64,000 nt of DNA from Candidatus Omnitrophota bacterium (GCA_016209275.1 JACQWM010000053.1:11235-75234), one strand, 5' to 3'. Counted from the first letter of the stretch, positions 8,070 through 64,000 are shown. Numbers and translations are program-made. The notes: a model not told the origin generated them from the sequence alone.

Positions 8070-9471
8070 TAGACGATTGATATCAGATATCGCGGCTCGA
8101 CCGCGATATCTGGTATCGCTTGTCTTTATCGTCATCCTTCAGGGATGCCGACCGCCTCAAGGTGTTGATGAGCGCCAATGGCCGCAGGTTGTGCTCGAGC
8201 CTACTGATCGGATTCTGATCCTTGCCCCCCACCCCGATGATGAGGTGATTGGTTGCGGCGGCATCATTCAGGAGGCCGTCGCCAAGCACCTGCCGCTGCG
8301 CATCGTGTTTCTGACTTATGGCGATAACAATCAGTGGTCCTTTCTCCTCTATCGATGGCACCCGGTCATCCTGCCCAAGGCGATTCGCAAGATGGGCCTG
8401 GTGCGGTATCACGAAGCGTTGGCAGCGAGCGTTGTGCTCGGAGTGCCCACAGAGCAATTAACCTTTCTCGGGTATCCGGATTTCGGCACGCTGCAGATCT
8501 GGACCTCGCACTGGGGCGACCGGAATCCCTTCCGCAGCTTGCTGACGCGGGTCACGGCGGTTCCCTACGACAACGCCCTGCGGTTCGGAGCGCCCTATAA
8601 AGGCGAAGAGGTCCTGCGGGATCTGACCACGGTCATCCGCGAATTCCGTCCCACGAAAATCTTCGTGTCCCATCCGGCGGACCACATGCCGGATCATCGA
8701 GCGCTCTATCTGTTTACTCGCGTTGCCCTGTGGGATGTGGAGAAGGAGATGCGCCCAACGCTGTATCCGTATCTTGTGCATTTCGTGCGCTGGCCAACGC
8801 CGCGCGGCTATCAACCCGCCGATTGGCTTGTTCCTCCATCGACGTTATTGTCGCAATGGCCATGGATCGTCCATTGGCTGACCCCGTCACAAGTCCAACG
8901 GAACTATCAAGCCATCAAAGCGCATCGGAGCCAATATCGGTATAGCGCGGCGTACCTGCTGTCCTTCATTCGGCCGAACGAGTTATTCGGTGACGCTCCG
9001 CCGATTACGTTTTCGTCAACGGCGTCCACGGCCTTAGAGCGCAAAGGGTTGATCAACCAGGCTCCGGAAGAGCTCACCGAGGAGGAACGAGCCACGTTCA
9101 TTGGCGTTGAAGTTCGCTCGGTGCAATTGGAGGACCGCGAACTCATCTATTCTATTGAGTGTTCCCGGCCGCTTGCCAAAGCCGTCGAGGCCTCGGTCTA
9201 TCTGTTCGGGTATCGCGCCGACCGGCCATTTGCGCAGATGCCGAAGTTGCATGTGAAAATCGGCGCCCTCTCCCACGAGGTGTTTGACCAAGATCGTTTG
9301 TTGCCGAATAAGGCGGTGACGCTGAGCCGCGGCCTGCGCCAGATCACCCTGCGCGTTTCGCTTGAGACTTTGGGCGAACCTCAGCGGATCTTGACCAGCG
9401 CGCGGACGTATCTGGGTGAGCTGCCGCTGGACTGGGTTTCCTGGCGCGTGCTTGAACTTCCTTCGCCGTAA
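8050..9471 (+). CDS. PIG-L/LmbE-family N-acetylglucosaminyl deacetylase lipoprotein with ~250-aa C-terminal extension
   Basis: Lipobox VILQGC; classic LmbE motif ILILAPHPDDEVIGCGG and HPADHMPDH. Start is ambiguous: ATG 8050 overlaps the GNAT gene, or TTG 8077 lies inside a palindromic repeat. Confidence 0.6.
   Translation: MASPSASRRLISDIAARPRYLVSLVFIVILQGCRPPQGVDERQWPQVVLEPTDRILILAPHPDDEVIGCGGIIQEAVAKHLPLRIVFLTYGDNNQWSFLLYRWHPVILPKAIRKMGLVRYHEALAASVVLGVPTEQLTFLGYPDFGTLQIWTSHWGDRNPFRSLLTRVTAVPYDNALRFGAPYKGEEVLRDLTTVIREFRPTKIFVSHPADHMPDHRALYLFTRVALWDVEKEMRPTLYPYLVHFVRWPTPRGYQPADWLVPPSTLLSQWPWIVHWLTPSQVQRNYQAIKAHRSQYRYSAAYLLSFIRPNELFGDAPPITFSSTASTALERKGLINQAPEELTEEERATFIGVEVRSVQLEDRELIYSIECSRPLAKAVEASVYLFGYRADRPFAQMPKLHVKIGALSHEVFDQDRLLPNKAVTLSRGLRQITLRVSLETLGEPQRILTSARTYLGELPLDWVSWRVLELPSP
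8075..8119. repeat. GATATC-unit palindromic element (locus A)
   Basis: GATATCAGATATCGCGG-ctcga-CCGCGATATCTGgTATC: a 17-bp inverted repeat with 5-nt loop and one mismatch. Confidence 0.8.
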
Positions 9472-9556
9472 CTGCGGCTCATGACCCACGACGCATGACA
9501 CAGGACACATGACCACAGCAGGGCCATCGGCTCGAAGCCGTCGTGAGTCATGGGTC

Positions 9557-10747
9557 ATGAGTCATGGGTCGCCCTTTCGTGGAATTACGGGGCCAGTCCT
9601 GACGTTGGGGTTCGTCAGCTTCTTGACGGATGTCTCCAGCGAAATGATCTATCCGTTGCTGCCCATCTTTCTGACGACCGTGCTCGGAGCCGGCCCGGCG
9701 GCGCTCGGGATGATCGAGGGAGCCGCAGAATCCATGGCGGCGATCGTGAAGCTGCTCTCCGGCGTATGGTCGGATCGCGTGCGCAACCGGTCCCGTTTGG
9801 TGTTCTTGGGCTACAGCCTCTCCTCGTGCTCTCGGCCGCTCGTGGCCGCGGCGACCAGCGCCTCCCACATCCTGTGCATCCGCTTGACCGATCGCGCGGG
9901 CAAGGGGGTTCGCACGTCGCCGCGCGATGCGATGATCGCCGACGCTGTCGCACCCTCAGTGCGAGGCAAAGCGTTCGGCTTCCACCGGTCGATGGATCAT
10001 GCCGGCGCGGTCATCGGCCCGCTCCTCGCGACCGCCCTCCTGACGTGGTGGGTTCATGATCTTCGCGTGGTGTTTTGGCTGGCCAGCCTCCCCGGGCTGT
10101 TGGCGGTGGGACTCATTGCCTGGAAGGTGCGCGAGCCTGCTCCCGAGCGCCGCGCGCTAGCGACGCCGCCAGCGCTCTCGTGGGCATGGCCCAGCGGCGC
10201 CTTGCGCCGCTATCTGCTCATCCTCTTCATCTTCACGCTGGGCAACTCCACGGACGCCTTCCTCTTATTGCGCGCCGCCGGGCTCGGCGTGCCGACCGCG
10301 CAGCTGCCGCTGCTCTGGGTCGTCTTCCACATCGTGAAAATGGTATCCTCGATGCCGCTGGGCGCGCAGTCAGACCGTTTTGGCAGGAGACGTGTGATTC
10401 TCGCCGGGTGGGGCGTCTACGCGCTCGTGTATCTCGGGTTTGCCGCGGCCACGCAGCCGTGGCACGTCTGGGCGTTGTTCGCGCTCTACGGCGTGTTTTA
10501 TGGCTGCACCGAAGGCACGGAGCGAGCACTCCTGGCGGATCTTTCAACGCCGTCGATGCGCGGGGCGGCCTTTGGATGGTATCATGGCATCACCGGCATC
10601 GGGCTGCTGCCTGCGAGCCTGCTCTTCGGCGCGCTCTGGCAGCATGCGGGGCCGCAGGCGGCCTTCAGCGTTGGAGCCGTCTTGGCAGCGGTAGCCGCCG
10701 CCGGGCTGATGCTGTGTCTTGATGTTTCGTCGCGCCTTCACTCGTAA
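9557..10747 (+). CDS. MFS transporter
   Basis: 12-TM major facilitator similarity (GWGVYALVYLGFA, DRFGRRRV motif). Alternative start 9509. Confidence 0.65.
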   Translation: MSHGSPFRGITGPVLTLGFVSFLTDVSSEMIYPLLPIFLTTVLGAGPAALGMIEGAAESMAAIVKLLSGVWSDRVRNRSRLVFLGYSLSSCSRPLVAAATSASHILCIRLTDRAGKGVRTSPRDAMIADAVAPSVRGKAFGFHRSMDHAGAVIGPLLATALLTWWVHDLRVVFWLASLPGLLAVGLIAWKVREPAPERRALATPPALSWAWPSGALRRYLLILFIFTLGNSTDAFLLLRAAGLGVPTAQLPLLWVVFHIVKMVSSMPLGAQSDRFGRRRVILAGWGVYALVYLGFAAATQPWHVWALFALYGVFYGCTEGTERALLADLSTPSMRGAAFGWYHGITGIGLLPASLLFGALWQHAGPQAAFSVGAVLAAVAAAGLMLCLDVSSRLHS

Positions 10748-10786: not shown

Positions 10787-12112
10787 TTGGTTCGTGTGCT
10801 TGTGCTCGTGGCTGTGCTGTTGATGCGGCCGTTCGGGCTTGCCGCGGAAGAGCCGGTGACGCCAACCATGCTGACGCTCGCCGATGCCGTCCGGCTCGCG
10901 ACCACACGCTACGCCGAGGTGTTAGCCGCGAATGAGCGAACGCTCCAAGCGCTGGCTCGCCTCGGGCAAGCGCGCGCCACCTTGTGGCCTCACCTCGACG
11001 CCTCGGCGTCGCAATTCCGCCAGACGAGGAACCTTGAAGCCTCGGGCATTCCAATTGCCTTGAGCCATCCGGTCATCGGCCCGTTTAATTCGTTTGATGC
11101 GCGCATTGGGCTGACCCAAACGTTGTTTGATGTCAGCGCCTTCGAACGGTTCCTTACGGCCCGCGCCGGCCGGCAATTGTCCTTAGCGCAGTACGAAAAA
11201 GCCAAGCAAGATGCCATGGCGCTCGTGGCGGCGCTCTTTCTCGAGGCGGTGCGGGCCGCGCAGGCGATTGAGCCGGCGCATGCCCTGTTGACGCGCGATC
11301 AGCGACGGCTCGAGATTGCGTCGACCCAGCACGCCCTCGGCCTTGGATCCGATGTGGACGTGCAGCAGGCCCAGGCCGATGTCGAGGAGAGCCATGCGCG
11401 GTGGCAATCGTCGCTCACGTCCGCGTATGAACGCCAGCTCGATGTGATTGCCGCCTTGCATCTGCCCATGGATCAGCCGCTGATCTTGGTCGATGAGGAA
11501 GATCTCCTCGTGTCCGTACCACGGACCGCTGCCGAAACACAGGCCGCGGCGCAGAGCCATCCGGATGTTGTGGTGGCCCAGCGCGCGCTCACACAGCGCA
11601 CCGCAGAGCAAGCGGCTGAGCGCACCAGCGTCCTTCCCACCATCAAACTCTCCGCGGATTATGGCGCGAGCGGCAAGACCATCAGCGAGAGCGCAGGGAC
11701 CTACACCGTGGGAGCCAGCGTCGCGCTTCCCATCTTCGCCGGTGGCCAGCGCCTCGCGAGAATCCGCGAGGCCGAGAGCCGCGTGCGCGAGGGACACACC
11801 CTATTGGATGACGTTCGTCAGCAGGCAGAGGTGAAGGCGCTGCGCGCCGTCGAAACGCTGCGGCAATCCGCCGTGGTGGTGAAAGCGCAGACGGCCCTGC
11901 TGCAACTGGCCACCACGCACCTCATGGTGGCCCAGCGGCGTCTGCGCAGCGGCCTGGGCAGCGAGCTCGATGTGGTCGATGCGCAGACGAATGCTATGGT
12001 CGCGAAAGACCATCGTGCGGATGCGATAGCGACCTATCGGATGGCGCAAGTGACGCTGGCCCATGCCATGGGCCACGTGGAGTCTTTGGCACGAACACAA
12101 TTCCATGACTAG
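10787..12112 (+). CDS. TolC-family outer membrane efflux protein
   Basis: TTG start; signal peptide; two OEP repeats with coiled-coil/beta pattern; first gene of the efflux operon. Confidence 0.7.
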   Translation: MVRVLVLVAVLLMRPFGLAAEEPVTPTMLTLADAVRLATTRYAEVLAANERTLQALARLGQARATLWPHLDASASQFRQTRNLEASGIPIALSHPVIGPFNSFDARIGLTQTLFDVSAFERFLTARAGRQLSLAQYEKAKQDAMALVAALFLEAVRAAQAIEPAHALLTRDQRRLEIASTQHALGLGSDVDVQQAQADVEESHARWQSSLTSAYERQLDVIAALHLPMDQPLILVDEEDLLVSVPRTAAETQAAAQSHPDVVVAQRALTQRTAEQAAERTSVLPTIKLSADYGASGKTISESAGTYTVGASVALPIFAGGQRLARIREAESRVREGHTLLDDVRQQAEVKALRAVETLRQSAVVVKAQTALLQLATTHLMVAQRRLRSGLGSELDVVDAQTNAMVAKDHRADAIATYRMAQVTLAHAMGHVESLARTQFHD

Positions 12113-12836
12113 CACACAGCAGTTAGCGCACAGCACACAGAGGAACGGTGCTCCCTGTGTGCTGTTTGCTGTGTGCTGTCTGCTCATCTCAGGATGCGAT
12201 CGGTTGATGCGCAACGGGGATTTGCAGTTGACCGGCACGCTGGAGTTGACCGAGCACGCGGTGGGCGCCCGCGTGCCGGGTCGTGTGGCCACGCTGCTGG
12301 TGCAAGACGGTGATGAGGTAAGCGCGGGACAGGTCCTAGCCACCCTGGATCGCTTCGACCAAGCCACGCGGGATGCCGATCGCATCCAGGCGCTCTTCAA
12401 GGCCGGCGGGGCCACGCAACAAGCCGTCGAGCAAGCCGGGTTATCGCTCGAGGACCAACAGGTCGTCTCGCCGGTGACCGGGGTGGTCTTGGTCAAAGTG
12501 CATGAGGCGGGGGAAGTGGTGGGAGCCGGCGCGCCGATTGTCATCATCGGGGACCGATCCTCCCTGTGGGTCCGGGTGTTTGTGCCGGAGGGAAAAGTCA
12601 ATCAGGTGTATTTGCAGCAGCCGGCGACGCTGCGATTTGACGGCCTGGCTCGCACGTACGGCGGCCACATCAGCTTCATCGCGCCGAAGGCGGAGTTTAC
12701 GCCTCGCAATGTGCAAACCGTCGAAGAGCGGATTACGCAAACATTCGCCGTAAAGGTGACCGTGGACCAGCCGGATCCCTCCTTGCGCCCTGGTGTAGCC
12801 GCCGATGTCATCATCCATCTCAAGGGCGACCGATGA
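12105..12836 (+). CDS. HlyD-family periplasmic adaptor (membrane fusion protein) lipoprotein
   Basis: Start overlaps TolC stop; lipobox LLISGC; biotinyl/lipoyl-like and beta-barrel MFP motifs (VLATLD, VSPVTGVV). Confidence 0.65.
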   Translation: MTSTQQLAHSTQRNGAPCVLFAVCCLLISGCDRLMRNGDLQLTGTLELTEHAVGARVPGRVATLLVQDGDEVSAGQVLATLDRFDQATRDADRIQALFKAGGATQQAVEQAGLSLEDQQVVSPVTGVVLVKVHEAGEVVGAGAPIVIIGDRSSLWVRVFVPEGKVNQVYLQQPATLRFDGLARTYGGHISFIAPKAEFTPRNVQTVEERITQTFAVKVTVDQPDPSLRPGVAADVIIHLKGDR

Positions 12837-13765
12837 GCGAGACGATTGCGATTGAGGCGAGAGAGTTGACGCGGCGCTTCGGGACGCTGGTCGCCGTCGA
12901 TCATGTGAGCTTCTCGATTCGCTACGGCGAGATCTTCGGCTTTCTCGGCCCCAACGGCTCGGGCAAGAGCACCACCATCCGGATGCTCTGCGGCATCCTG
13001 GCTCCCACGAGCGGGGCCGCCACGGTCGCGGGCTTCGACGTCAACACGGATCCTGAGCGCGTCAAAACCGCCATCGGCTACATGTCCCAGCGTTTCAGTC
13101 TCTACCACGATCTCACCGTGGAAGAGAACCTGGAGTTTTACGGCCGGATCTACGGCCTGAGCGACGCGGCGCTGCGCGAGCGCAAACAGGAGGTCCTGCA
13201 GCTCACCGGGTTGGATCAGTGGCGCGGCCGCCTGGCTGGGGAGCTCTCCGGCGGATCTAAACAGCGGCTCGCACTGGCCAATGCGGTGTTGCATCAGCCG
13301 CGCCTGCTCTTTCTCGATGAGCCCACGGCGGGCATTGATCCGGTTTCGCGCCGCGCGCTCTGGGAGCTGCTCTATCAGCTGGCCGAAGGCGGCATCGCGC
13401 TGTTTGTGACGACCCACTATATGGAGGAGGCCGAGCGATGCAATCAGATTGCCTTCATCAGCCAGGGACGGCTGCTGAGCATCGGCCCGCCCAACGCGCT
13501 GAAAGCCCGCGTGGGCGGCCAGCTCCTCGAAGTCGAATGCGCGCCGCTGATGAAAGCCTCCCGGGTGTTTCGCCGGCTGCCCGGGGTGACGAACATCACC
13601 GCCTTCGGCACGACGCTGCATCTGAATCTCTCCGTCGATCCGGCCGTGGCGACGCAGGCGATTCGTGATTGCGCCTCCACAGAAGCGATCGAGATCCGGT
13701 CGATTCAGCCCATCGCCGCGACCCTAGAGGATGTGTTCGCCACGATGACCGAGGGAGTGGGATGA
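12833..13765 (+). CDS. ABC transporter ATP-binding protein
   Basis: Walker A GPNGSGKST, signature LSGGSKQRL, Walker B LLFLDEPTAGID; ATGA coupling with MFP. Confidence 0.85.
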   Translation: MSETIAIEARELTRRFGTLVAVDHVSFSIRYGEIFGFLGPNGSGKSTTIRMLCGILAPTSGAATVAGFDVNTDPERVKTAIGYMSQRFSLYHDLTVEENLEFYGRIYGLSDAALRERKQEVLQLTGLDQWRGRLAGELSGGSKQRLALANAVLHQPRLLFLDEPTAGIDPVSRRALWELLYQLAEGGIALFVTTHYMEEAERCNQIAFISQGRLLSIGPPNALKARVGGQLLEVECAPLMKASRVFRRLPGVTNITAFGTTLHLNLSVDPAVATQAIRDCASTEAIEIRSIQPIAATLEDVFATMTEGVG

Positions 13766-18142: not shown

Positions 18143-18197
18143 CTGCACAGGCGATATCAGATATCGATTTCGATATCTGATATCGCTCTTGCAGTTG
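18141..18197. repeat. GATATC-unit palindromic element (locus B)
   Basis: aaCTGCAcagGCGATATCAGATATCG-attt-CGATATCTGATATCGCtctTGCAGtt: perfect 16-bp arms with an extended outer stem. Confidence 0.85.
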
Positions 18198-19280: not shown

Positions 19281-21268
19281 CTCCTCTTGAGGCGCTCGTC
19301 GCCCGATCTCGACGCATTGGAGCGCAGGAGCGGTTGGGGCTCTTCGGCGGAGGCAACACCTCGATCAAATGCGCGCAGCCGGATCTCTTCGGCCGGCCGC
19401 AGGAGGTGCTGTGGGTCAAAGGCAGCGGCGCAGATTTGAACAATTGTTCCGCGCGGCATTTCGCTCCGCTGGCCCTCGCCCCGCTGCAGCGGATGGCTGC
19501 GCGCGCCGATATGAGCGATGAGGAGATGGTGCGCTTTCTTGAGCGCTGTCTGCTGGATCCGAAAGCGCCGCGCCCGTCGGTGGAAACGCTGCTCCACGCG
19601 TTTATTCCGCAGGCCTCGGTGGATCACACCCATGCCGATGCGATCCTCGCACTCGCCAATACCCGCCGCGGGCGGCACCTCACCCGACGGATTCTTGGTC
19701 CTGAGCTGTTATGGATCCCGTACATCCAGCCTGGCTTTCGGCTCTCGCGCTACGTCTGGGAGGCCTACCGCGATCAGCCACAAGCGCACGGGGCGGTGCT
19801 GGAGAAACACGGCCTCATCACCTGGGGCCCGGATGGGCGCACGAGCCTCAAGCGCACGATCGACGCGGTGTCCCGCGCCGAGCGCTTCATTCATGCCCGG
19901 CGGCGGAAACGATCATGGTCGTCCGTGGGATGCGCCGCACTCAGCCCGAACGAGCGCTCGGCCTGGTTGCGCCGGCGGTTGCCGGTGCTGCGGCGGGTGA
20001 TCAGCCAGCACCGGCGCATGAGCCTGACCGTGTGGGATTCGCCGGACATCCTGGAGTTTGTGAACGCCCGGCGGATGCCGCGAGTCGCCCGCATCGGTCC
20101 GGCGACGCCGGATCACATGCTGCGCACCAAACGCTTGCCGCTGATTGCCCGCGCATCCGACGACATGGCACGGCGGCTTCATCAGTATGCCGACGCGCAC
20201 CGACGCTATTTTCTCACGTATCGCCGCACAGGTCAGGCCATGCAAGACCCCTTCCCGCGCGTCATGCTCATTCCCGGCGTCGGCATGATCACGACAGGGA
20301 AGGATGCTGCCGAGACCGCGCGGGTGGCCATGATCTATCGGCACGCGATGGCCATCATGCGCGATGCCTCAACCGTCGGCGCCTATACGTCGGTGTCGGC
20401 GCGCGAGGCGTTCGGTGTAGAGTATTGGCCGCTGGAGTTGTATAAACTGACCCTCGCCCCGCCGGAGCCGGAATTCGCCCGGCAGATCGGCTTGATCACG
20501 GGAGCTGCCGGGGGCATCGGCCGCGCCATCGCGCACTGTCTGGCCAGCCGTGGGGCTTCGGTCATCGTGACCGATCTTCACGCCGCCGCCGTTGAGCAGC
20601 TCGCGGAGGCGATCAATCGGCGCGTGGGTCGTCGGTGTGCGCTCGGCTTAGGGATGGACGTGACCAGCGAACGCAGCGTGGACGCAGCGCTCGATCGCGT
20701 GCTCCGACAGTTCGGCGGCCTCGACTTTCTCGTGTCCAATGCCGGGATCGCGCACGTCGCGGCCGTGGATCGATTGGAGCTCTCGCAATGGGAACGCAGT
20801 CTGGCTGTCAATGCCACGGGCCATTTCTTGGTGTCGCGAGCCGTCGTGCGTTTGCTCAAGGCGCAGGGCCTGGGGGGTGCGCTCGTGTTTATTGCGTCAA
20901 AAAACGTCTTAGCCCCAGGCAAAGATTTCGGCGCCTATAGCGCGGCTAAAGCGGCGCAAACCCAGCTGGCCCGCATCCTGGCGATTGAAAACGGCGAACA
21001 TCAGATTCGGGTGAATCTGGTGAACCCCGATGGCGTCTTCGAGGGCTCGGGCTTGTGGAACACGATCAAGGCCTCTCGGGCGAAGTCCTATGGCATCACG
21101 CCCAAGGCGCTCGAATCGTATTATCAGGGCCGCAATCTCTTACAGGCGCGCGTGCTGCCGGAAGACGTGGCCGAAGCCGTCGCGTTTTTCATCTCGGCGA
21201 AATCGGCGAAAACCACCGGCTGCATCCTCACCGTCGATGGCGGAGTACGCGAGGCATTTCCGCGATGA
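19277..21268 (+). CDS. bifunctional class II aldolase / short-chain dehydrogenase (RhaEW-like fusion)
   Basis: N-terminal class II aldolase/adducin motif GGGNTS; C-terminal SDR with TGAAGGIGRAIA NAD(P)-binding motif, NAG and YSAAKAA catalytic motifs; ATGA coupling with mtnA and with the next gene. Confidence 0.75.
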   Translation: MTPLEALVARSRRIGAQERLGLFGGGNTSIKCAQPDLFGRPQEVLWVKGSGADLNNCSARHFAPLALAPLQRMAARADMSDEEMVRFLERCLLDPKAPRPSVETLLHAFIPQASVDHTHADAILALANTRRGRHLTRRILGPELLWIPYIQPGFRLSRYVWEAYRDQPQAHGAVLEKHGLITWGPDGRTSLKRTIDAVSRAERFIHARRRKRSWSSVGCAALSPNERSAWLRRRLPVLRRVISQHRRMSLTVWDSPDILEFVNARRMPRVARIGPATPDHMLRTKRLPLIARASDDMARRLHQYADAHRRYFLTYRRTGQAMQDPFPRVMLIPGVGMITTGKDAAETARVAMIYRHAMAIMRDASTVGAYTSVSAREAFGVEYWPLELYKLTLAPPEPEFARQIGLITGAAGGIGRAIAHCLASRGASVIVTDLHAAAVEQLAEAINRRVGRRCALGLGMDVTSERSVDAALDRVLRQFGGLDFLVSNAGIAHVAAVDRLELSQWERSLAVNATGHFLVSRAVVRLLKAQGLGGALVFIASKNVLAPGKDFGAYSAAKAAQTQLARILAIENGEHQIRVNLVNPDGVFEGSGLWNTIKASRAKSYGITPKALESYYQGRNLLQARVLPEDVAEAVAFFISAKSAKTTGCILTVDGGVREAFPR

Positions 21269-22788: not shown

Positions 22789-22831
22789 GGCGATATCAGA
22801 TATCGAGCATTCGCTCGATATCTGATATCGC
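22789..22831. repeat. GATATC-unit palindromic element (locus C)
   Basis: GCGATATCAGATATCGAGC-attc-GCTCGATATCTGATATCGC: perfect 19-bp arms. Confidence 0.85.
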
Positions 22832-22837
22832 TCTTGC

Positions 22838-24957: not shown

Positions 24958-25509
24958 ATGCATCGGAGCACGCGGTTGGGCGCTGGAGTGCTGGCGGCGT
25001 TGTTGATGGGCGGATGCTACGGCCCGTTTAATTTGACGCGGACCCTGTATCACTGGAACGGGAATCTTCAAGACAAGTGGGTGCGCGAGTTTGCCTTCAT
25101 CGTGATGGTGTGGGCTCCGGTCTATGGGTTGGCGACGCTGGGCGACGCGGTAATTTTCAACTCGATCGAATTCTGGGGAGGGAAGAACCCTGTCGAGCCG
25201 CCGAAGGGAGCCAGCCTGCCCGCCACCAAGCACATTGTCCGCGGCGATGCCGAGGCCTGGTTGACGTACCGCAACACCGCGGAAGGCCGCGAGCTCCTCG
25301 TGGAGCAATTCCAGCGCGGCCGTCCGGCCGCAACACTCCGGGTGACTGAGCGCCATGGCATGACGGTTGGCGAGGATGCCGACGGCCACGTGCTCTTGAC
25401 GGCCCAATCATTGGCTGATGGCCGGGTCGTCGTCAATAATGGGGAAGGGCAAACGGTGGCTTCCCATCCTGCGACCGAAGGGCCGCATCTCGCCTCCGTG
25501 CGCCGATAA
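24958..25509 (+). CDS. DUF3332-like lipoprotein
   Basis: Lipobox LLMGGC; FNLTRTLYHWN...IFNSIEFW pattern. Confidence 0.5.
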   Translation: MHRSTRLGAGVLAALLMGGCYGPFNLTRTLYHWNGNLQDKWVREFAFIVMVWAPVYGLATLGDAVIFNSIEFWGGKNPVEPPKGASLPATKHIVRGDAEAWLTYRNTAEGRELLVEQFQRGRPAATLRVTERHGMTVGEDADGHVLLTAQSLADGRVVVNNGEGQTVASHPATEGPHLASVRR

Positions 25510-25511
25510 CG

Positions 25512-25547
25512 ACGATATCAGATATCGAATTCGATATCTGATATCGC
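25512..25547. repeat. GATATC-unit palindromic element (locus D)
   Basis: CGATATCAGATATCGAATTCGATATCTGATATCG: a perfect 34-bp palindrome. Confidence 0.85.
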
Positions 25548-25554
25548 TCTGCGC

Positions 25555-26442: not shown

Positions 26443-26451
26443 GAACGCAGA

Positions 26452-26487
26452 GCGATATCAGATATCGAATTCGATATCTGATATCGT
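26452..26487. repeat. GATATC-unit palindromic element (locus E)
   Basis: GCGATATCAGATATCGAATTCGATATCTGATATCG: identical to locus D; sits between convergent genes. Confidence 0.85.
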
Positions 26488-26489
26488 CG

Positions 26490-27359
26490 TTAGATCGAGA
26501 GGCTTGGAACCGGAAGACGGATCTTGCGCAGCGCCTCGACAGGATCCATCGCCGGCAGCTTCGCCGGGTTGCCTTGCGGCAACCGGATCCGCTTGGCCAG
26601 TCCCAACCAGGACAGGAGACGGATCGTCGCGTACGTCATGTCGAACTCCCACCAGCGCAAGCCATGCGCGGCCGAATGCAGATACGCATGGTGGTTGTTA
26701 TGCCAGCCCTCGCCGTACGACAGCAACGCGACCCACCAGTTGTTCGTGGAGCCCTCATTCGTGTCGAAGGTTTTGTAGCCCCACAGGTGCGAGGCGGAGT
26801 TCACCAGCCAGGTGGAATGCCAGACCACCGCGGTGCGGAGAAACACGCCCCAGATCACCCACGGCCATCCCCCCAGCGCTAGCAGGATGAGCCCGAGCAG
26901 CACCGTGTAGAGCACGTGGGTGCGTTCGATGAATTGGTGCACCCGATTGCGGGCCAGATCCGGCACATAGCGCTCATACTTGCTGGGATTGTCCAATACC
27001 TCATCGTATGGGAACAGCCACAGCATGTGCGCCCACCAGAACCCCTTATTCGGGCTGTGGGGGTCTTGCGGCCGGTCAGAAAACGCGTGGTGCACCCGGT
27101 GCGTCGCGACCCACTTCACCGGTCCCCCTTGAACCGACAAGGAGCCGATGACGGTGAGCGCATACTCGAGCCACCGCGGAACATGAAAGCTGCGGTGGGC
27201 CAGCAGCCGGTGGTAGCAGAGGGTGACGCCTAACCCGGTGAGCAGCTGGAGCCAGAAGAAGATCCAGAACCCTGTCCAGGTGAATGTCCAAGGTGCTAGC
27301 ACCGCGCCCGCGTGGATCAGCACCACCCCGAACACAATCGACCACTTCATCTTCGCCAT
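26490..27359 (-). CDS. acyl-CoA/acyl-lipid delta-9 fatty acid desaturase
   Basis: Three His boxes HRLLAH, HRVHH and HNNHH in a 4-TM scaffold. Confidence 0.8.
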   Translation of the reverse strand: MAKMKWSIVFGVVLIHAGAVLAPWTFTWTGFWIFFWLQLLTGLGVTLCYHRLLAHRSFHVPRWLEYALTVIGSLSVQGGPVKWVATHRVHHAFSDRPQDPHSPNKGFWWAHMLWLFPYDEVLDNPSKYERYVPDLARNRVHQFIERTHVLYTVLLGLILLALGGWPWVIWGVFLRTAVVWHSTWLVNSASHLWGYKTFDTNEGSTNNWWVALLSYGEGWHNNHHAYLHSAAHGLRWWEFDMTYATIRLLSWLGLAKRIRLPQGNPAKLPAMDPVEALRKIRLPVPSLSI

Positions 27360-43286: not shown

Positions 43287-43301
43287 GAGAGGGTGGGACT
43301 G

Positions 43302-44342
<1,041 letters not shown>

Positions 44343-44364
44343 GGTAAGGGTAGGTAGTAAGTAA

Positions 44365-44390
44365 GGTGACAGTCACTTTTGGGGACAGGC
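44365..44390. repeat. REP-like palindrome GGTGACAGTCAC + GGGGAC flanking the RAYT 3' end
   Basis: GGTGAC-A-GTCAC perfect palindrome followed by GGGGACAGGC. Confidence 0.6.
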
Positions 44391-44990
44391 ATTTTTGGCT
44401 GGGCGGCGCTGGAACAAATAGGCCGGTCCTCCGATGGCCGTGGCGGCGCTGAAGATGAACCTCGCGGTCTCGGAGGAATAGTCGATGGCAGACAGCGAGG
44501 GCGGGAGTGCTGGCGGCAGATAGGGATCGAGCAGCTCGTCGGGAACCCCAAGATGGTAATGCCGGTAGCTACTGTGCGGGTAAGCCGCCGGTTCCTTGCA
44601 GAGGCCTGCCCGAATAGGGTTGAACTCCACGTACGTTCCGCACGCGGTAAGATACTCCTCACTTTCGATCGGCAAACTTTTGTATCGTTCCCTCCAGAGC
44701 GGGCCTTTCCATCCATATTTCCTACGCATCCAAATCGTGTACCTCCACTTGAGCTGGGCCAGGTGCGCTGAGAGGGCGTGTTGGGTTGTCGCCTGAAGGA
44801 CGAAGTGGAAGTGCGTGTGCATGATCACGTAGTGAAACAGGCGGAGGGGAAAGTCGCGTTTCGCCTGCTGCTGCAGCTTGCGGAAGCGGGAGAAGTCTTC
44901 AGGGTCCCTGAAGATATGGGTTTGATTGATGGAACGAGAGATGACGTGGTAGTACCCGTTGTCCTGAATGAATCGGGCAGTTCGTGGCAT
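44373..44990 (-). CDS. REP-associated tyrosine transposase (RAYT; IS200/IS605-like HUH Y1 transposase)
   Basis: YHVISRS..., HUH motif HTHFHFVL, catalytic Tyr region; flanked by palindromic REP-like sequences. Confidence 0.75.
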   Translation of the reverse strand: MPRTARFIQDNGYYHVISRSINQTHIFRDPEDFSRFRKLQQQAKRDFPLRLFHYVIMHTHFHFVLQATTQHALSAHLAQLKWRYTIWMRRKYGWKGPLWRERYKSLPIESEEYLTACGTYVEFNPIRAGLCKEPAAYPHSSYRHYHLGVPDELLDPYLPPALPPSLSAIDYSSETARFIFSAATAIGGPAYLFQRRPAKNACPQK

Positions 44991-45010
44991 CCGGTCCTCA
45001 ACTCGATGTC

Positions 45011-45047
45011 TGTCCCCGGCGGTGACTGTCACCAGTGGGGACGGCCG
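45011..45047. repeat. REP-like palindrome GTCCCCggcGGTGACTGTCACCagtGGGGAC flanking the RAYT 5' end
   Basis: GGTGAC-T-GTCACC core with CCCC/GGGG outer arms. Confidence 0.6.
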
Positions 45048-45052
45048 TTTCC

Positions 45053-46576
45053 TTACCAAAGTTGACGATCGAGGCTGCGATACTGGATCGCTTCGGCCAG
45101 ATGCTCAGGGAGAATCTCCTCCGACGCGGCCAGATCCGCGATCGTCCGGGCGATTTTAAGGAGCTTGCCGTAGGAGCGGGCCGAGACCCCCAGCTCCTGC
45201 AGCGCGGATTTCAGCAGCGCGGCAGCCTGCAGGCTGAGCGGGCAGGCGTTCGCCAAGTCGCGGTGGCGCAGCTGCGCGTTGCAGGCCACGCCAAGCGGTC
45301 TCAAGCGCTTCCGGGCTCGCCGCCTCGCGGCCACCACGCGCGCCTTGATCGCTTGCGATGATTCTCCGTCGGCCGGATGCGTGAGCGTCTCAAACCGCAC
45401 CGCCGGCACTTCCACGTGCAGGTCGATGCGATCCAGCAGCGGGCCGGAAATCTTCGCCAGGTACTGCGCCACTTTGTGGGACGGGCAGCGGCACCGCCGC
45501 CTGGGATCGGTGAGGTAGCCGCACGGACACGGATTCATCGCGGCCACGAGCAGAAACCGCGCGGGAAAGGTGACTGAGCGTTTCGCGCGCGCGACGCTGA
45601 TCACGCCGTCCTCGAGCGGCTGCCGCAAACTCTCCAAGGCGTCTCGATGGAACTCCGGCAGCTCATCCAGAAACAAGACTCCATGGTGCGCGAGCGACAC
45701 TTCGCCGGGCTTGGGGGTCGCCCCGCCGCCGACCAGGGCCACGGCCGAGGTGGTATGATGCGGCGCGCGGAACGGCCGCTGCGCGATGAGCGGCGCCTCA
45801 TGCAGCAACCCCGCCACGCTGTGAATCGCGGTGGCTTCCAACGCCTCATCCAGCGAGAGGTCCGGCTCGATGGTGGCCATGCGCTGGGCGAGCATGGTCT
45901 TGCCGGAGCCGGGCGGGCCGATCAGCAGCGCATGATGGCCGCCGGCCACGGCGACTTCCAACGCGCGCTTGACGTGCGCCTGGCCGCGGACATCGGCGAA
46001 ATCGACCGGATAGCGTGCGGGCGCGCGGAGCGCTCGGCGTGACGCTGAAGGCGCTGGGGCAGCGGCACTCGGCGCGGAGAGCCAGGCGACCGCCTCGGTC
46101 AGCGACGCCACCGGCACGACGTGAAGGCCGCCGATGAGGCGGGCTTCTTGGGCATTGGCCCTCGGCACCATCAACGGCCGTCGGTTGTGGCGCAGTGCCA
46201 GCGCAATCGGCAAGACTCCGGGCACGGCGCGCACGCTGCCATCCAACGCGAGCTCTCCCATCGCCATCAGCGAGGCCACCCGATGAGGATCGGCTTGCCC
46301 TGTGGCCGCAAGCATCCCTAAGGCCATCGCCAAATCAAAAATGCCGCCCTCCTTTTTGACATCCGCCGGGGCGAGGTTGATGGTGAGCCTTGAAGAGGGC
46401 AGCTGATATTGGCTATTGAGGATGGCCGCGCGGATGCGCTCTTTGGCTTCTTTCACCGCCTGATCCGGCAAACCGATGATGGAGAAAGTGGGCAGCCCGC
46501 GCGCGGCATCGACCTCCACGTCGACCGCAACGGCGTGCAAGCCCAGTGTCGTATACGATGTGGTGCGCGCGAGCAT
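45053..46576 (-). CDS. comM: YifB/ComM-family Mg-chelatase-like AAA+ ATPase
   Basis: N-terminal Lon-like domain; Walker A GPPGSGKT; Zn-ribbon-like CPCGY...CRC. Confidence 0.85.
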   Translation of the reverse strand: MLARTTSYTTLGLHAVAVDVEVDAARGLPTFSIIGLPDQAVKEAKERIRAAILNSQYQLPSSRLTINLAPADVKKEGGIFDLAMALGMLAATGQADPHRVASLMAMGELALDGSVRAVPGVLPIALALRHNRRPLMVPRANAQEARLIGGLHVVPVASLTEAVAWLSAPSAAAPAPSASRRALRAPARYPVDFADVRGQAHVKRALEVAVAGGHHALLIGPPGSGKTMLAQRMATIEPDLSLDEALEATAIHSVAGLLHEAPLIAQRPFRAPHHTTSAVALVGGGATPKPGEVSLAHHGVLFLDELPEFHRDALESLRQPLEDGVISVARAKRSVTFPARFLLVAAMNPCPCGYLTDPRRRCRCPSHKVAQYLAKISGPLLDRIDLHVEVPAVRFETLTHPADGESSQAIKARVVAARRRARKRLRPLGVACNAQLRHRDLANACPLSLQAAALLKSALQELGVSARSYGKLLKIARTIADLAASEEILPEHLAEAIQYRSLDRQLW

Positions 46577-50171: not shown

Positions 50172-50192
50172 CTGTTCCAGGCGATATCAGAG

Positions 50193-50276
50193 TGCCGGAG
50201 GAGGGAGTCGAACCCTCATGGCCTTGCGACCACGGGTTTTTGAGACCCGCGTGTATACCAGTTCCACCACCCCGGC
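50193..50276 (-). tRNA. tRNA-Leu (anticodon CAA)
   Basis: Minus-strand sequence GCCGGGGTGGTGGAACTGGTATACACGCGGGTCTCAAAAACCCGTGGTCGCAAGGCCATGAGGGTTCGACTCCCTCCTCCGGCA: 7-bp acceptor stem, anticodon loop CUCAAAA, long variable arm, GGTTCGA T-loop; CCA not encoded. Confidence 0.8.
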
Positions 50277-50280
50277 CTGA

Positions 50281-50376
50281 AGTTCGATATCAGATATGAA
50301 ATAGCCATTTCATATCTGATATGAAACAGGCAATCCATATCAGATATCAAAACGCCATTTCATATCTGATATCGCC
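50281..50376. repeat. cluster of GATATC-unit palindromic elements (locus F) adjacent to the tRNA-Leu 5' end; an additional half-site at 50181-50191 abuts the tRNA 3' end
   Basis: TTCGATATCAGATATGAAAT-agcc-ATTTCATATCTGATATG ... CATATCAGATATCAAAAcgccATTTCATATCTGATATCGCC: two tandem degenerate hairpins. Confidence 0.8.
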
Positions 50377-52528: not shown

Positions 52529-52549
52529 AGTGTTATCGCGAGAAATGCG

Positions 52550-52622
52550 TGGAGCAGACGGGGATCGAACCCGTGACCTCCACAATGCCATTGTGGCGCT
52601 CTCCCAGCTGAGCTACTGCCCC
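52550..52622 (-). tRNA. tRNA-Ala (anticodon GGC)
   Basis: Minus-strand GGGGCAGTAGCTCAGCTGGGAGAGCGCCACAATGGCATTGTGGAGGTCACGGGTTCGATCCCCGTCTGCTCCA: G3:U70 Ala identity pair, anticodon loop AUGGCAU; followed at 52625-52635 by GTGACGGTCAC palindrome. Confidence 0.8.
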
Positions 52623-52706
52623 GCGTGACGGTCACTATACCGTAGCTTACTCGACGGTGTCAATCTCATCGCGTTGTCCCGGCTCAGTATGGTATCATCA
52701 GAAACT

Positions 52707-61186: not shown

Positions 61187-63217
61187 ATGACGCGGACCTT
61201 CACGATTTCTTCTTCAGCGAGCCTCAAGTTTCACCTCGACTTGGAGCAGGATCTCAACAACGCCCAGCGCGCCGCGGTGACCTGCGGCGAGGGGCCGAAG
61301 CTCGTCATCGCGGGCGCCGGCTCGGGCAAGACCCGCACGATCACCTATCGGGTGGCCTTCCTCATCGCCAAGGGAATCCACCCCAGCCAGATCCTCTTGG
61401 CCACCTTTACCAATAAGGCCGCGCGGGAAATGCTCAGCCGCGTCGAACAATTGACCGGCGGCGACGCCAGCGGCCTGTGGGGTGGGACATTCCACGCCAT
61501 CGGCAATCGGCTGCTGCGCCAGCACGGGACGCTGGTGGGGCTGCAGCCGAACTATTCCATTCTGGATGAGGAAGATCAGCGGGACTTGATCAAAGTCTGC
61601 ATCACCGAGGCCAAGGTGAAGGTTGAAGAGAAACGGTTTCCAGCGCCGTCGCTCATCGGGGATCTGATCAGCATGGCGTTCAACCTGCAGAAACCTCTGG
61701 CGGCTGTCATCGAGGCCCGCGCGCCGCATTTTGGCCTGTGGGCGCCGGAGCTTGAGCAGGTGGCCGCGCGCTATGAGGCGAAGAAGCGGTCGACGAATGC
61801 GCTGGATTACGACGATCTGCTAAAGTTTTGGCTGAAGCTGCTGGAGACCAAGCCTGAGATGGCGGAGCGGCTGAGTCGGCAGTTTCGCCACATCCTCGTC
61901 GATGAGTATCAAGATACGAATGTGGTCCAAGCGCAGATCGTCGAACGTCTGGCCCAGCGCAATGGCCGCAATCTCATGGTCGTCGGAGACGATGCGCAGA
62001 GTATTTACCAGTTCCGCGGGGCCAACTATGACAACATCCTCAAGTTTCCCGAACGCAACCCCGGCACGGAGATCTTCAAGCTGGAAACCAACTACCGCTC
62101 CACCCCGGAAATCCTCGAGTTCACCAACGCGAGCATCCTGCATAACCAGCACCAGCACCGCAAGACCTTGGTCGCGCAGCGCGACCGGGGCCGCCTGCCG
62201 GTCGTGGTCCCCGCGAACGACATGTATCAGGAAGCGGCGTTTGTCGCCGAGCGGATTTTACAATTGCGCGACGACGGCATTCCCTTGGAGGAGATGGCCG
62301 TGCTCTACCGGGCGCACGCGCACTCCTCGATGCTGCAGGCCGAGCTGATCAAGCGCAACATCCCCTACGACGTGCGCTCCGGGGTGCGGTTTTTCGAGCA
62401 AGCGCACATTAAAGATGTGGTGGCGTATCTGAAGGTGCTCGACAATCCGCATGATGAGATCGCCTGGCGGCGGCTGTGGCTCATGCTGCCGAGAGTCGGC
62501 CATGTGACGGCCGCACGGCTCTGGGAGGCGATTGCCAGCGCCGTGAATCCATTCGATGCCGCGCTGACCGAGGCGGTGGCTCGCACGCTGCCGCCGGCCG
62601 CCCAGGCCTACTACAAACGATTTCAGCACGACCTGCGACGGCTCTCGGCGTCCCGCGAGGATGTCTCGCCGCAGGAGCTGATCCGGGCGGTCATGGAGAG
62701 CGGCTATGCGGATTATCTGCGCGCGAAGTACGACGCGTTTCAATCAAGGCTGGAAGATCTGCAGCAGCTTGCGGTCTTTGCGCGGCCGTATCGCAGCCTG
62801 CGCAGCCTGCTCTCGGAGCTGGTGTTGCTCGGCGAGCTGTACGGCCAAGAGGTTGGTCCGGGTTCGGCCGAGACCGAACGGCTCATCCTCAGCTCGGTGC
62901 ATCAAGCCAAAGGATTGGAGTGGCGCGTGGTCTTCGTCATCCGGATGTGCGAGGGCAGCTTTCCGTCGGAGATGGCGTTGCGCGAAGAGCGCGGGGAAGA
63001 GGAAGAGCGGCGGATTTTTTACGTGGCCACGACCCGTGCCAAAGATGAGCTGTACATCACGCATCCGCTCATCGATCTCTCCCCGCGCGGCAACAGCCAG
63101 CTCCTGCTGCAACCCTCGCGCTTCCTGCGCGAGATCCGCTTTACCCTCTATGAGCAAGGCCAGATTGATCAGACGGTTGATATCAGATATCATCAGTCTG
63201 ACGCCGATGATATCTGA
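61187..63217 (+). CDS. UvrD/PcrA/Rep-family ATP-dependent DNA helicase
   Basis: Walker A GAGSGKT, motif II VDEYQDTN, later helicase motifs; the 3' end reads into a palindromic repeat (locus G). Confidence 0.85.
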   Translation: MTRTFTISSSASLKFHLDLEQDLNNAQRAAVTCGEGPKLVIAGAGSGKTRTITYRVAFLIAKGIHPSQILLATFTNKAAREMLSRVEQLTGGDASGLWGGTFHAIGNRLLRQHGTLVGLQPNYSILDEEDQRDLIKVCITEAKVKVEEKRFPAPSLIGDLISMAFNLQKPLAAVIEARAPHFGLWAPELEQVAARYEAKKRSTNALDYDDLLKFWLKLLETKPEMAERLSRQFRHILVDEYQDTNVVQAQIVERLAQRNGRNLMVVGDDAQSIYQFRGANYDNILKFPERNPGTEIFKLETNYRSTPEILEFTNASILHNQHQHRKTLVAQRDRGRLPVVVPANDMYQEAAFVAERILQLRDDGIPLEEMAVLYRAHAHSSMLQAELIKRNIPYDVRSGVRFFEQAHIKDVVAYLKVLDNPHDEIAWRRLWLMLPRVGHVTAARLWEAIASAVNPFDAALTEAVARTLPPAAQAYYKRFQHDLRRLSASREDVSPQELIRAVMESGYADYLRAKYDAFQSRLEDLQQLAVFARPYRSLRSLLSELVLLGELYGQEVGPGSAETERLILSSVHQAKGLEWRVVFVIRMCEGSFPSEMALREERGEEEERRIFYVATTRAKDELYITHPLIDLSPRGNSQLLLQPSRFLREIRFTLYEQGQIDQTVDIRYHQSDADDI

Positions 63218-63226
63218 TATCGCCTT
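63178..63226. repeat. GATATC-unit palindromic element (locus G)
   Basis: GATATCAGATATCATC-agtctgacgcc-GATGATATCTGATATC: perfect 16-bp arms; overlaps the uvrD-like stop codon. Confidence 0.8.
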
Positions 63227-63628: not shown

Positions 63629-64000
63629 ATGAGCGCCCCGCTTGTTCCTGTCACCATCGTCTTCATCCTTGGCATTGCGCTTCAGCTCTTCCGCCCCTGT
63701 CCTCTCGGTCTTGTTGCGGTTGTCGGATTGCTGGCCGGATCTTTCGTGTTGCTGAATCGCCGGTCATGGGTCATGCGCCATGGATCGCTCTTGGTCTTAT
63801 GGTTGTGTCTCGGGATGCTCCGCATGGCCGTGTGGCAAGCCCATCCGGACCACCGGTTGTCATCGAGGCTCCCTGAGGCGCCGACCGCGGTGCGAGCGCA
63901 TGGCGTGGTCATCAGCGATCCGGTGGAGCGCTGGGGTTGGCAGGATCGTCTGGAGCAGCGCTGCGTGCTGCGGCTTCTGCCGATGGCGGGGCGCGTGCAG
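63629..64000 (+). CDS. comEC: DNA internalization competence protein ComEC/Rec2, N-terminal part (continues beyond window)
   Basis: N-terminal TM helices then ComEC N-terminal OB-like region (VRAHGVVISDPVER); the ORF runs off the window end. Confidence 0.6.
   Translation, partial: MSAPLVPVTIVFILGIALQLFRPCPLGLVAVVGLLAGSFVLLNRRSWVMRHGSLLVLWLCLGMLRMAVWQAHPDHRLSSRLPEAPTAVRAHGVVISDPVERWGWQDRLEQRCVLRLLPMAGRVQ

Follow-up and report, generated by a model that had tools for sequence, protein, structure and literature searches.

A probable REPtron downstream of comM in Omnitrophota

When two families of palindromes share the neighbourhood of a single REP (repetitive extragenic palindrome)-associated tyrosine transposase (RAYT), which of them is its own? 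This question is raised by a 64-kb stretch of DNA from Candidatus Omnitrophota bacterium (GCA_016209275.1 JACQWM010000053.1:11235-75234; hereafter the window), in which a RAYT-like gene of the HUH/Y1 type on the minus strand (44373-44990) lies between two palindromes with a GTGAC core, and in which a second family of palindromes, containing GATATC, is scattered over seven other loci. An original prediction, made by reading this sequence, had described a RAYT with its canonical cognate REPs and had left it to be asked which family the enzyme mobilises. We consider, at a probability of about 0.8, that the locus is a REPtron, that is, a single-copy, vertically inherited RAYT resembling TnpA_REP together with its cognate hairpin repeats; to the question as it was asked, the evidence favours the GTGAC family, and not the GATATC family, as the repeat of this RAYT.

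The RAYT gene and its flanking repeats

The gene encodes a protein of 205 residues that contains the motifs YHVISRS and HTHFHFVL; its HUH motif is H60-F-H62, the catalytic tyrosine (Y120) lies in the motif TYVEFNP, and N124 is conserved. The start codon was placed at the ATG at 44990 and not at an upstream TTG, because the same MPR begins all homologues; a Shine-Dalgarno-like GAGGA is found 4 nt before this ATG. The Pfam domain Y1_Tnp is recognized with an E-value of 1.4e-12 (48 bits, cut-off 23), and REP_Tyr_transpos (NF047646) is by far the best NCBIfam model (70.7 bits, E 1.2e-19, profile positions 2-146 of 146), while the IS200 model (NF033573) reaches 13.6 bits against a cut-off of 55. 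The sole match by sequence in the PDB is E. coli TnpA_REP (4ER8), in which H60/H62 fall on H59/H61 and Y120 on Y115 (DYIYINP); an alignment of 32 homologues shows no variation at H15, R19, H60, H62, Y120 or N124. When the AlphaFold2 model of the protein (predicted local distance difference test score 91.4) was compared with the PDB using Foldseek, 4er8_A was again retrieved first (E 1.2e-7, 170 columns, TMt 0.76), followed by the TnpAs of the IS200/IS605 elements ISDra2 and IS608 (E ~1e-4, ~105 columns), and the predicted fold is closer to TnpA_REP than to these enzymes. The HUH/Y1 signature of a RAYT that had been recognized in this open reading frame (ORF) is thus borne out by the motifs, by both domain models and by the match to 4ER8, with the HUH and the catalytic tyrosine in register with those of TnpA_REP. 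In a scan of a genome collection, in which the matches listed were mostly distant RAYTs of Proteobacteria, residues 1-157 share, among these matches, 31-45% identity with RAYT-type genes of Pseudomonas, Stutzerimonas and many other bacteria; residues ~145-205 form a clade-specific tail of about 60 residues. The database label of the protein is just "transposase".

Both flanks of the gene are built from the palindrome GGTGAC-W-GTCACC plus the module TGTCCCC/GGGGACA. The 3' repeat unit (44365-44392) reads GGTGACAGTCAC-TTTT-GGGGACAGGCAT, or ATGCCTGTCCCC-AAAA-GTGACTGTCACC on the gene strand; it encodes the last residues of the RAYT, (N)ACPQK, and the stop codon TGA (44375-44373) lies inside its GTGAC. 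The 5' unit (45006-45048), located in the 62-nt spacer between comM and the RAYT gene, is a nested palindrome, CTGTCCCC-GGCG-GTGACTGTCAC-CAGT-GGGGACGG (45010-45044; CCGTCCCC-ACTG-GTGACAGTCAC-CGCC-GGGGACAG on the gene strand), whose outer arms CTGTCCCC and GGGGACGG enclose the core GGTGACTGTCACC (45021-45033). The segments 44365-44392 and 45006-45033 form the two arms of a 28-nt inverted repeat beside the ORF, with 82% complementarity. The sequence GTGACNGTCAC occurs at 44366, 45022 and 52625, i.e. three matches where 0.01 would be expected, and none of 100 shuffles reached three. No further convincing copy was found in the window: the matches to GGTGACNGTCACC at one or two mismatches, other than the flanks and the copy near tRNA-Ala discussed below, all lie inside long ORFs and lack the TGTCCCC module. 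As every one of these degenerate copies is within coding sequence, they were rejected as an effect of codon composition. A search of the window's RAYT flanks for known RNA families, sigma-70 promoters or their consensus and intrinsic (T-tract) terminators found none.

The bracket recurs in related genomes. Besides an identical protein on record from a Candidatus Omnitrophota MAG (metagenome-assembled genome), at least 95 homologues of the RAYT were retrieved, most of them 50-66% identical, mostly with one contig each and many from Omnitrophota MAGs. Ten Omnitrophota genomes were compared, namely the window and L001, L002, L004, L006, L086, L087, L088, L089 and L211, and in all ten the RAYT gene is bracketed by the core of the GTGAC family, so that the bracketing palindromes with GGGGAC that had been pointed out in the window hold there and in nine further genomes. 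Between 600 nt upstream and 150 nt downstream of the RAYT gene there are 44 core units in 13.6 kb, and the remainder of the ten loci contains 15 in 209 kb; the density next to the gene is therefore ~45-fold higher. As a control, 1.1 Mb around 79 distant RAYT genes, among the matches listed, yielded two motif matches. The position of the units is also constant: the downstream unit contains or follows the stop codon in every genome (in seven of the ten the stop is inside GTGAC), and upstream, in nine genomes, 26-43 nt separate the end of the last unit from the ATG, compared with 2 nt to the called start in L211. Two upstream layouts are found, a nested hairpin TGTCCCC-N-core-N-GGGGACA in the window, L004, L088, L089 and L211, and a doublet GGTGACTGTCACG-YTYTT-YGTGACTGTCACC in L001, L002, L006, L086 and L087. 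The bracket in nine further genomes and the 45-fold enrichment support the identification of the flanking palindromes as the cognate repeat of this RAYT.

The sequence TGCCTGTCCC(C)AAAAGTGA of the 3' unit is read in two frames, as ..NACPQK* in 27 of 96 homologues and as ..KCLSQK* in 13, and some homologous ORFs continue into the core as GDSH, GDCH or VTVT; the use of two reading frames over the same unit indicates conservation at the level of the DNA and not of the protein. In L211 the core has become GTGCC-A-GGCAC, changed on both sides with the palindrome kept. All eight copies in L087 read GTGCC-T-GTCAC ... GTGAC-T-GGCAC, such that the single units are not palindromes but the units of a doublet still pair. 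When 18 distinct doublets from seven loci were examined, 93% of the cells of the proposed 18-bp hairpin were paired, compared with 34-51% after the partners had been slid; eight of the 18 pairs change on both sides, and none of 500 shuffles reached the covariation score, the varying pairs being mostly in the feet outside the selected core and outside the search pattern. As single-stranded DNA, the units of the relatives are predicted to fold at -13 to -22 kcal/mol (z -4 to -9). In the doublets of L001, L002, L006, L086, L087, L213 and L135, the 5-7 nt on each side outside the core vary from copy to copy yet are mutually complementary, even within one genome; this could be due either to insertion into the tips of pre-existing hairpins or to selection for a long stem.

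The repeats are also found away from the gene. L087 and L088 have doublets several kb from the RAYT gene, in both orientations, and the variable C-terminal region of the RAYT itself has received in-frame insertions, of a doublet in L087 (P0068, "GACH..CDWH") and of a single unit in L002 (P0037, "GDSH"). The contig L092/L213, which is assigned to Omnitrophota by its Pgk (83-89% identical to that of many Omnitrophota MAGs), is the clearest case, with 13 units (six doublets and a single one) between the genes of an 11.4-kb pgk-tpiA-secG-...-ETF array, several of them nested in GGGGACGG...CCGTCCCC arms; the syntenic array of L214 (Pgk 88% identical) has no unit, even at one mismatch. Dispersed copies are thus present in L087, L088 and L213, and none was seen in the 10-20 kb sampled of L002, L004, L086 and L089. 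In some Omnitrophota genomes the GTGAC repeats are dispersed and insertion-polymorphic; in the 64 kb of the window there are just the two flanks. That the palindromes are not unique to the locus is shown by the relatives' sequences, the window by itself being equivocal. Taken together, the compensatory changes, the two reading frames and the presence or absence of units at orthologous sites identify the GTGAC repeat, at the level of sequence comparison, as a hairpin-forming mobile DNA element. L214 also harbors a second RAYT lineage (19567-20058), located between the ETF-alpha gene and an HTH_17 gene, which encodes 163 residues (29% identical to the RAYT of the window) and has its own flanking inverted repeats; at the same site L213 (9895-10202) has a GTGAC doublet bounded by GGGGACGG...CCGTCCCC.

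A proposed scheme and its competitors

In the scheme that we propose, the repeat unit would consist of two modules, a core GGTGAC-W-GTCACC and an outer (ATGCC)TGTCCCC found on one side, or on both as TGTCCCC...GGGGACA, and the RAYT gene would lie between two inverted units, with a complete nested hairpin upstream and a downstream unit over its last codons and stop. The enzyme would bind the hairpin folded by the repeat in single-stranded DNA, for example on the lagging-strand template at the replication fork, and would cleave beside it through the HUH-bound metal and Tyr120, giving a 5'-phosphotyrosyl intermediate; the strands would then be rejoined, so that repeat units or doublets (REPINs) are excised and re-inserted elsewhere while the gene itself stays in place. 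We infer the cleavage of these hairpins by the RAYT, the position of the cleavage site and activity in this genome, the template being E. coli TnpA_REP and, by homology too, the IS200/IS605 TnpAs (IS608, ISDra2), whose catalytic core is alike and whose chemistry on single-stranded DNA is guided by hairpins. More speculatively, the TGTCCCC module, 3-5 nt from the core, might serve as the guide or cleavage region in place of the GTAG of E. coli.

Several observations weigh against this scheme. The score for REP_Tyr_transpos is below the 80-bit equivalog cut-off, and the protein is therefore to be regarded as a divergent relative and not as a curated equivalog. The GT[AG]G foot of canonical REPs is missing, the units reading TGTCCCC-N3-5-GTGAC-W-GTCACC. 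The residues of E. coli TnpA_REP reported to contact the GTAG guide include W94, Q95, E100 and H101; in the alignment with 4ER8 only W94 is kept, Q95, E100 and H101 being aligned with K, R and E, although these replacements would fit a repeat that has no GTAG. As single-stranded DNA, the 5' unit of the window is only a weak hairpin (-9.8 to -10.8 kcal/mol, z -1.3 to -2.0), and the 3' unit barely folds and is essentially unstructured. Being limited to the two flanks of the RAYT gene, the GTGAC family is not repetitive within the window, and units placed so regularly, one about 30 nt ahead of the ATG and one at the stop, would suit a regulatory role as well. Of the canonical arrangement first proposed, the RAYT and its cognate flanks stand, but the canonical foot does not.

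Immediately upstream of the RAYT gene and on the same strand lies a comM/yifB-type gene for a Mg-chelatase-like AAA+ protein (45053-46576, minus strand). In all nine loci with annotated upstream genes, comM directly precedes the RAYT gene, in some with an 88-codon ORF (orf88) between them, and the order upstream is AccA - YkuD/LysM - DUF212 - orf~206 on one strand and comM - (orf88) - RAYT on the other; the window is organized likewise. The gene downstream differs from genome to genome (AbiEi, FGE-sulfatase, MazE/PIN, TPR proteins and others) and in the window encodes an SBF/ACR3-type transporter (43293-44342). The spacer between this gene and the 3' unit (44343-44364) is purine-rich and has many stop codons on the plus strand (TAAGGTAAGGGTAGGTAGTAAGTAAGG); in L004 and L006 the 3' units are followed by similar tracts, rich in CCTT on the gene strand. 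Around the distant RAYT genes, comM was found at none of the 79 loci among the matches listed, and its linkage is thus clade-specific. A constant upstream block combined with a varying downstream gene indicates that within this clade the RAYT has stably kept its place in the chromosome, on a synteny break, and the RAYT with its repeats possibly marks an integration hot spot there. There is one Y1 gene in the 64 kb of the window, and one per related locus too; with the comM synteny, this argues for a single-copy, vertically inherited and stable locus. Since the order comM-(hairpin)-RAYT is invariant in the clade and both proteins act on single-stranded or branched DNA, one may ask whether the RAYT has been recruited as a partner of ComM and processes hairpin-marked single-stranded DNA in transformation or recombination, the repeats being hot spots of recombination or integration; we regard this as unlikely, if conceivable.

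A mainly regulatory or structural function of the palindromes within the comM-RAYT unit, whether as the operator of a dimeric protein, as a terminator or attenuator after comM, or as a stabiliser of the mRNA 3' end, would account for the stereotyped spacing of 26-43 nt between unit and ATG and for the units at the stop. A co-evolving dimeric binder would likewise fit the perfect dyad GGTGAC-W-GTCACC and, in L211, its symmetric replacement by GTGCC-A-GGCAC, and REPs are known to influence termination and mRNA stability. Such a function would nevertheless not explain why units lie within the RAYT coding region and in the spacers of unrelated housekeeping operons, where they show presence/absence polymorphism, nor why in L087 the dyad of the single units has been lost and the hairpin of the doublet kept; nor does a T-tract terminator or a sigma-70 consensus occur at the flanks in the window. 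As the main function of the palindromes it is distinctly improbable. Regulation and transposition are compatible, and a RAYT that binds its own flanks could autoregulate; an additional regulatory role of the fixed units before the ATG and at the stop is plausible.

The GATATC family numbers about 15 units at seven loci in the window (8071-8122, 18145-18189, 22790-22834, 25507-25553, 26446-26492, 50278-50374 and 63171-63221). Its members are 34-nt perfect palindromes, CGATATCAGATATCG-AATT-CGATATCTGATATCG, and an array of 4 x 25 nt abuts the 5' end of tRNA-Leu(caa) (50192-50276). Given this abundance, the fact that its doublet hairpins have the same A...T centre layout, and the presence of just one Y1 gene in the window, the GATATC family might be taken as the working repeat population of the RAYT here, with the GTGAC flanks as relics. 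We hold this to be very unlikely: no GATATC unit is found within 5 kb of the RAYT gene, none occurs in 146 kb around the orthologous RAYT genes of eight relatives, and the RAYTs of described systems each have a REP family of their own at their flanks. As several RAYT/REP pairs are possible in one genome, and as a second, unrelated RAYT lineage exists in Omnitrophota (L214), the likeliest source of the GATATC family would be a separate enzyme encoded elsewhere in the genome. No second Y1 gene is present in the 64-kb window, nor does one lie between the GATATC doublets at 25507 and 26446, which bracket a cytochrome-oxidase-like unit of two membrane-protein genes.

An autonomous insertion sequence of the IS200/IS605 type, in which a Y1 transposase and subterminal hairpins move as a unit, would also present a Y1_Tnp domain with hairpins immediately at both ends of the gene, and IS200/IS605 transposases are clear structural relatives of the RAYT. 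This is a most improbable explanation of the locus, considering that the gene occupies the same site downstream of comM in nine of nine annotated loci at 50-66% protein identity, that the window and each related locus have a single Y1 gene, and that the repeats disperse without it. Its ends are moreover mutually inverted, as in REPtrons, and are not two different hairpins on the same strand, and the score of the IS200 model is far below its cut-off. In contrast to the IS200/IS605 TnpAs, the RAYT is thus neither multi-copy nor mobile as a unit, and it has no tnpB partner. Finally, although look-alikes at one or two mismatches arise in G+C-rich coding sequence (e.g. the codon run GTG-ACG-GTC-ACC), a chance or compositional origin of the flanking palindromes is practically negligible in view of three exact matches against 0.01 expected and of an arrangement that recurs in nine independent genomes.

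Look-alike palindromes and other observations

The third exact match, GTGACGGTCAC (52625-52635), had been read as a further copy of the family beside tRNA-Ala. Its position is correct, 2 nt upstream of the mature 5' end of tRNA-Ala(ggc) (52549-52622, minus strand), but its membership is not upheld. The palindrome sits between the tRNA and a sigma-70 promoter, TTGACA-N18-TATAGT, that matches the consensus at 11 of 12 positions and whose -10 box (TATAGT, with its end at 52634) it overlaps; it has G/C at its centre, where every RAYT-adjacent unit of the ten genomes has A or T, and it lacks both the GG/CC extension and the GGGGAC module. At the orthologous tRNA-Ala genes of L004 and L089 the promoter is conserved and the palindrome is absent. 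With its wrong centre, no flanking modules and no counterpart at two orthologous sites, it was rejected as a probable member, and to judge from these features it is probably unrelated to the GTGAC family; it may have arisen by chance, an event of 1% probability, or be a solo copy that has degenerated.

A scan of metagenomes for GTGAC doublets returned at least 80 loci (L090-L169). At the 80 loci listed, neither a Y1 nor a ComM homologue was found, and none of their neighbours is found repeatedly. Most common among them is a perfect hairpin of A..T order with a gap of 7 nt; the four contigs of this class that were tested belong to Anaerolineales/Chloroflexota and are therefore uninformative on Omnitrophota. 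Among the matches listed, just L092/L213 and probably L135, L164 and L111 belong to the GTGAC family studied here. Dispersed perfect hairpins of the form AGGTGACAGTCAC-YTnnnRA-GTGACTGTCACCT (e.g. L169 8134-8162 and L109 3252-3280) have the same 11-nt core on contigs of 35-73% G+C, and the order A..T outnumbers T..A by about 45 to 3 among the matches listed. The identical core in Anaerolineales could mean that the RAYT/repeat system is shared, or has been transferred, between phyla.

The conserved 88-codon ORF between comM and the RAYT gene (L001 9662-9928, L086 9653-9919, L087 9569-9835) is not present in the window; its product ends with a C-terminal CPLCQ and has no match in Pfam, and the ORF is bracketed by repeat doublets each time. 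In L001, the segments 8648-9930 and 11854-13134 are 100%-identical copies, 3206 nt apart, of the 3' part of comM, a repeat doublet and orf88. The RAYT gene, a 131-codon ORF and an AbiEi_2 gene lie between the two copies, which stem either from a recent tandem duplication at the repeats or from an error of assembly. Elsewhere in the window, an inverted repeat rich in CACAG/CTGTG is found at 12111-12184, and a direct repeat, GTCATGGGTCATG..., at 9547-9576 and 63763-63792.

Relation to known systems

Among the closest described systems is the E. coli TnpA_REP (YafM) REPtron (Ton-Hoang et al. 2012; Messing et al. 2012; structure 4ER8, PMC3479197), with which the locus shares the HUH/Y1 fold, the conserved HUH, Tyr and NP motifs and W94, as well as the organization, one gene between hairpin repeats in inverted orientation, copies of which are also found elsewhere in genomes. 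The identity in the structural alignment is however only ~17%, and the RAYT described here has the clade tail of ~60 residues and replacements of the contact residues Q95/E100/H101. Its repeats lack the GTAG foot and consist of a short core palindrome of 5-6 bp nested in TGTCCCC/GGGGACA arms, with the stop codon inside the repeat. The REPIN-RAYT systems of Pseudomonas and enterobacteria (Bertels & Rainey 2011, PMC3116915; Bertels et al. 2017, PMC5581495) are similar: the transposase is present in single copy, is inherited vertically and keeps its locus, the repeats on its flanks occur as doublets with long hairpins as well, and relatives differ in their insertions. Compared with them, the copy number in Omnitrophota is low and very uneven, from the flanks only in the window, and no copy beyond the flanks in several 20-kb loci, to 13 in 11 kb in L213, and the 11-nt core is conserved across a clade in which the RAYTs are 50-66% identical.

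In the classification of TnpA_Y1 proteins by Quentin et al. 2018 (PMC6006769), we compared subclass 2.6, class 3 and subclass 2.4. The genes of subclass 2.6 are described as flanked by secondary structures that lack GT[AG]G and recur at other genomic sites; the flanking structures reported here are also of a non-GT[AG]G type, and in this respect the RAYT resembles subclass 2.6. In subclass 2.4, in-frame insertions of REPs are found inside the tnpA_REP gene. The insertions in L087 and L002 are reminiscent of these, but they are located after the Tyr motif, in the C-terminal region, and not between the HUH and the Tyr. Omnitrophota are mentioned in the context of RAYTs or REPs neither in that HUH survey nor in the publications covered by a full-text literature search.

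It would correspond to a REPtron as Ton-Hoang et al. and Quentin et al. use the term, and to a REPIN-RAYT-like system as understood by Bertels and Rainey. As an example of bacterial repeat systems of a known kind the locus is genuine but rather ordinary, and it brings no new mechanism. What distinguishes it is the combination of non-GTAG repeats, a divergent enzyme, a repeat core and a comM-linked position that are both deeply conserved, and a phylum not covered in the literature searched. To our knowledge, systems of the REPIN/RAYT type have been studied almost only in Proteobacteria, and the present locus would extend them to Omnitrophota. There is also a practical consequence for annotation, as the repeat creates spurious N- or C-terminal extensions (VTVT, GDSH, ACPQK/CLSQK) in called proteins. 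In this clade the number of copies spans from just two flanking units up to one unit per kilobase, and the compensatory variants of the hairpin include GTGAC/GTCAC, GTGCC/GGCAC and the mixed form of L087. Because the core and the position are conserved at 50-66% protein identity while the copy number varies and the hairpin variants are compensatory, the clade offers a natural comparison set for the rise and death of repeat populations under one conserved enzyme.

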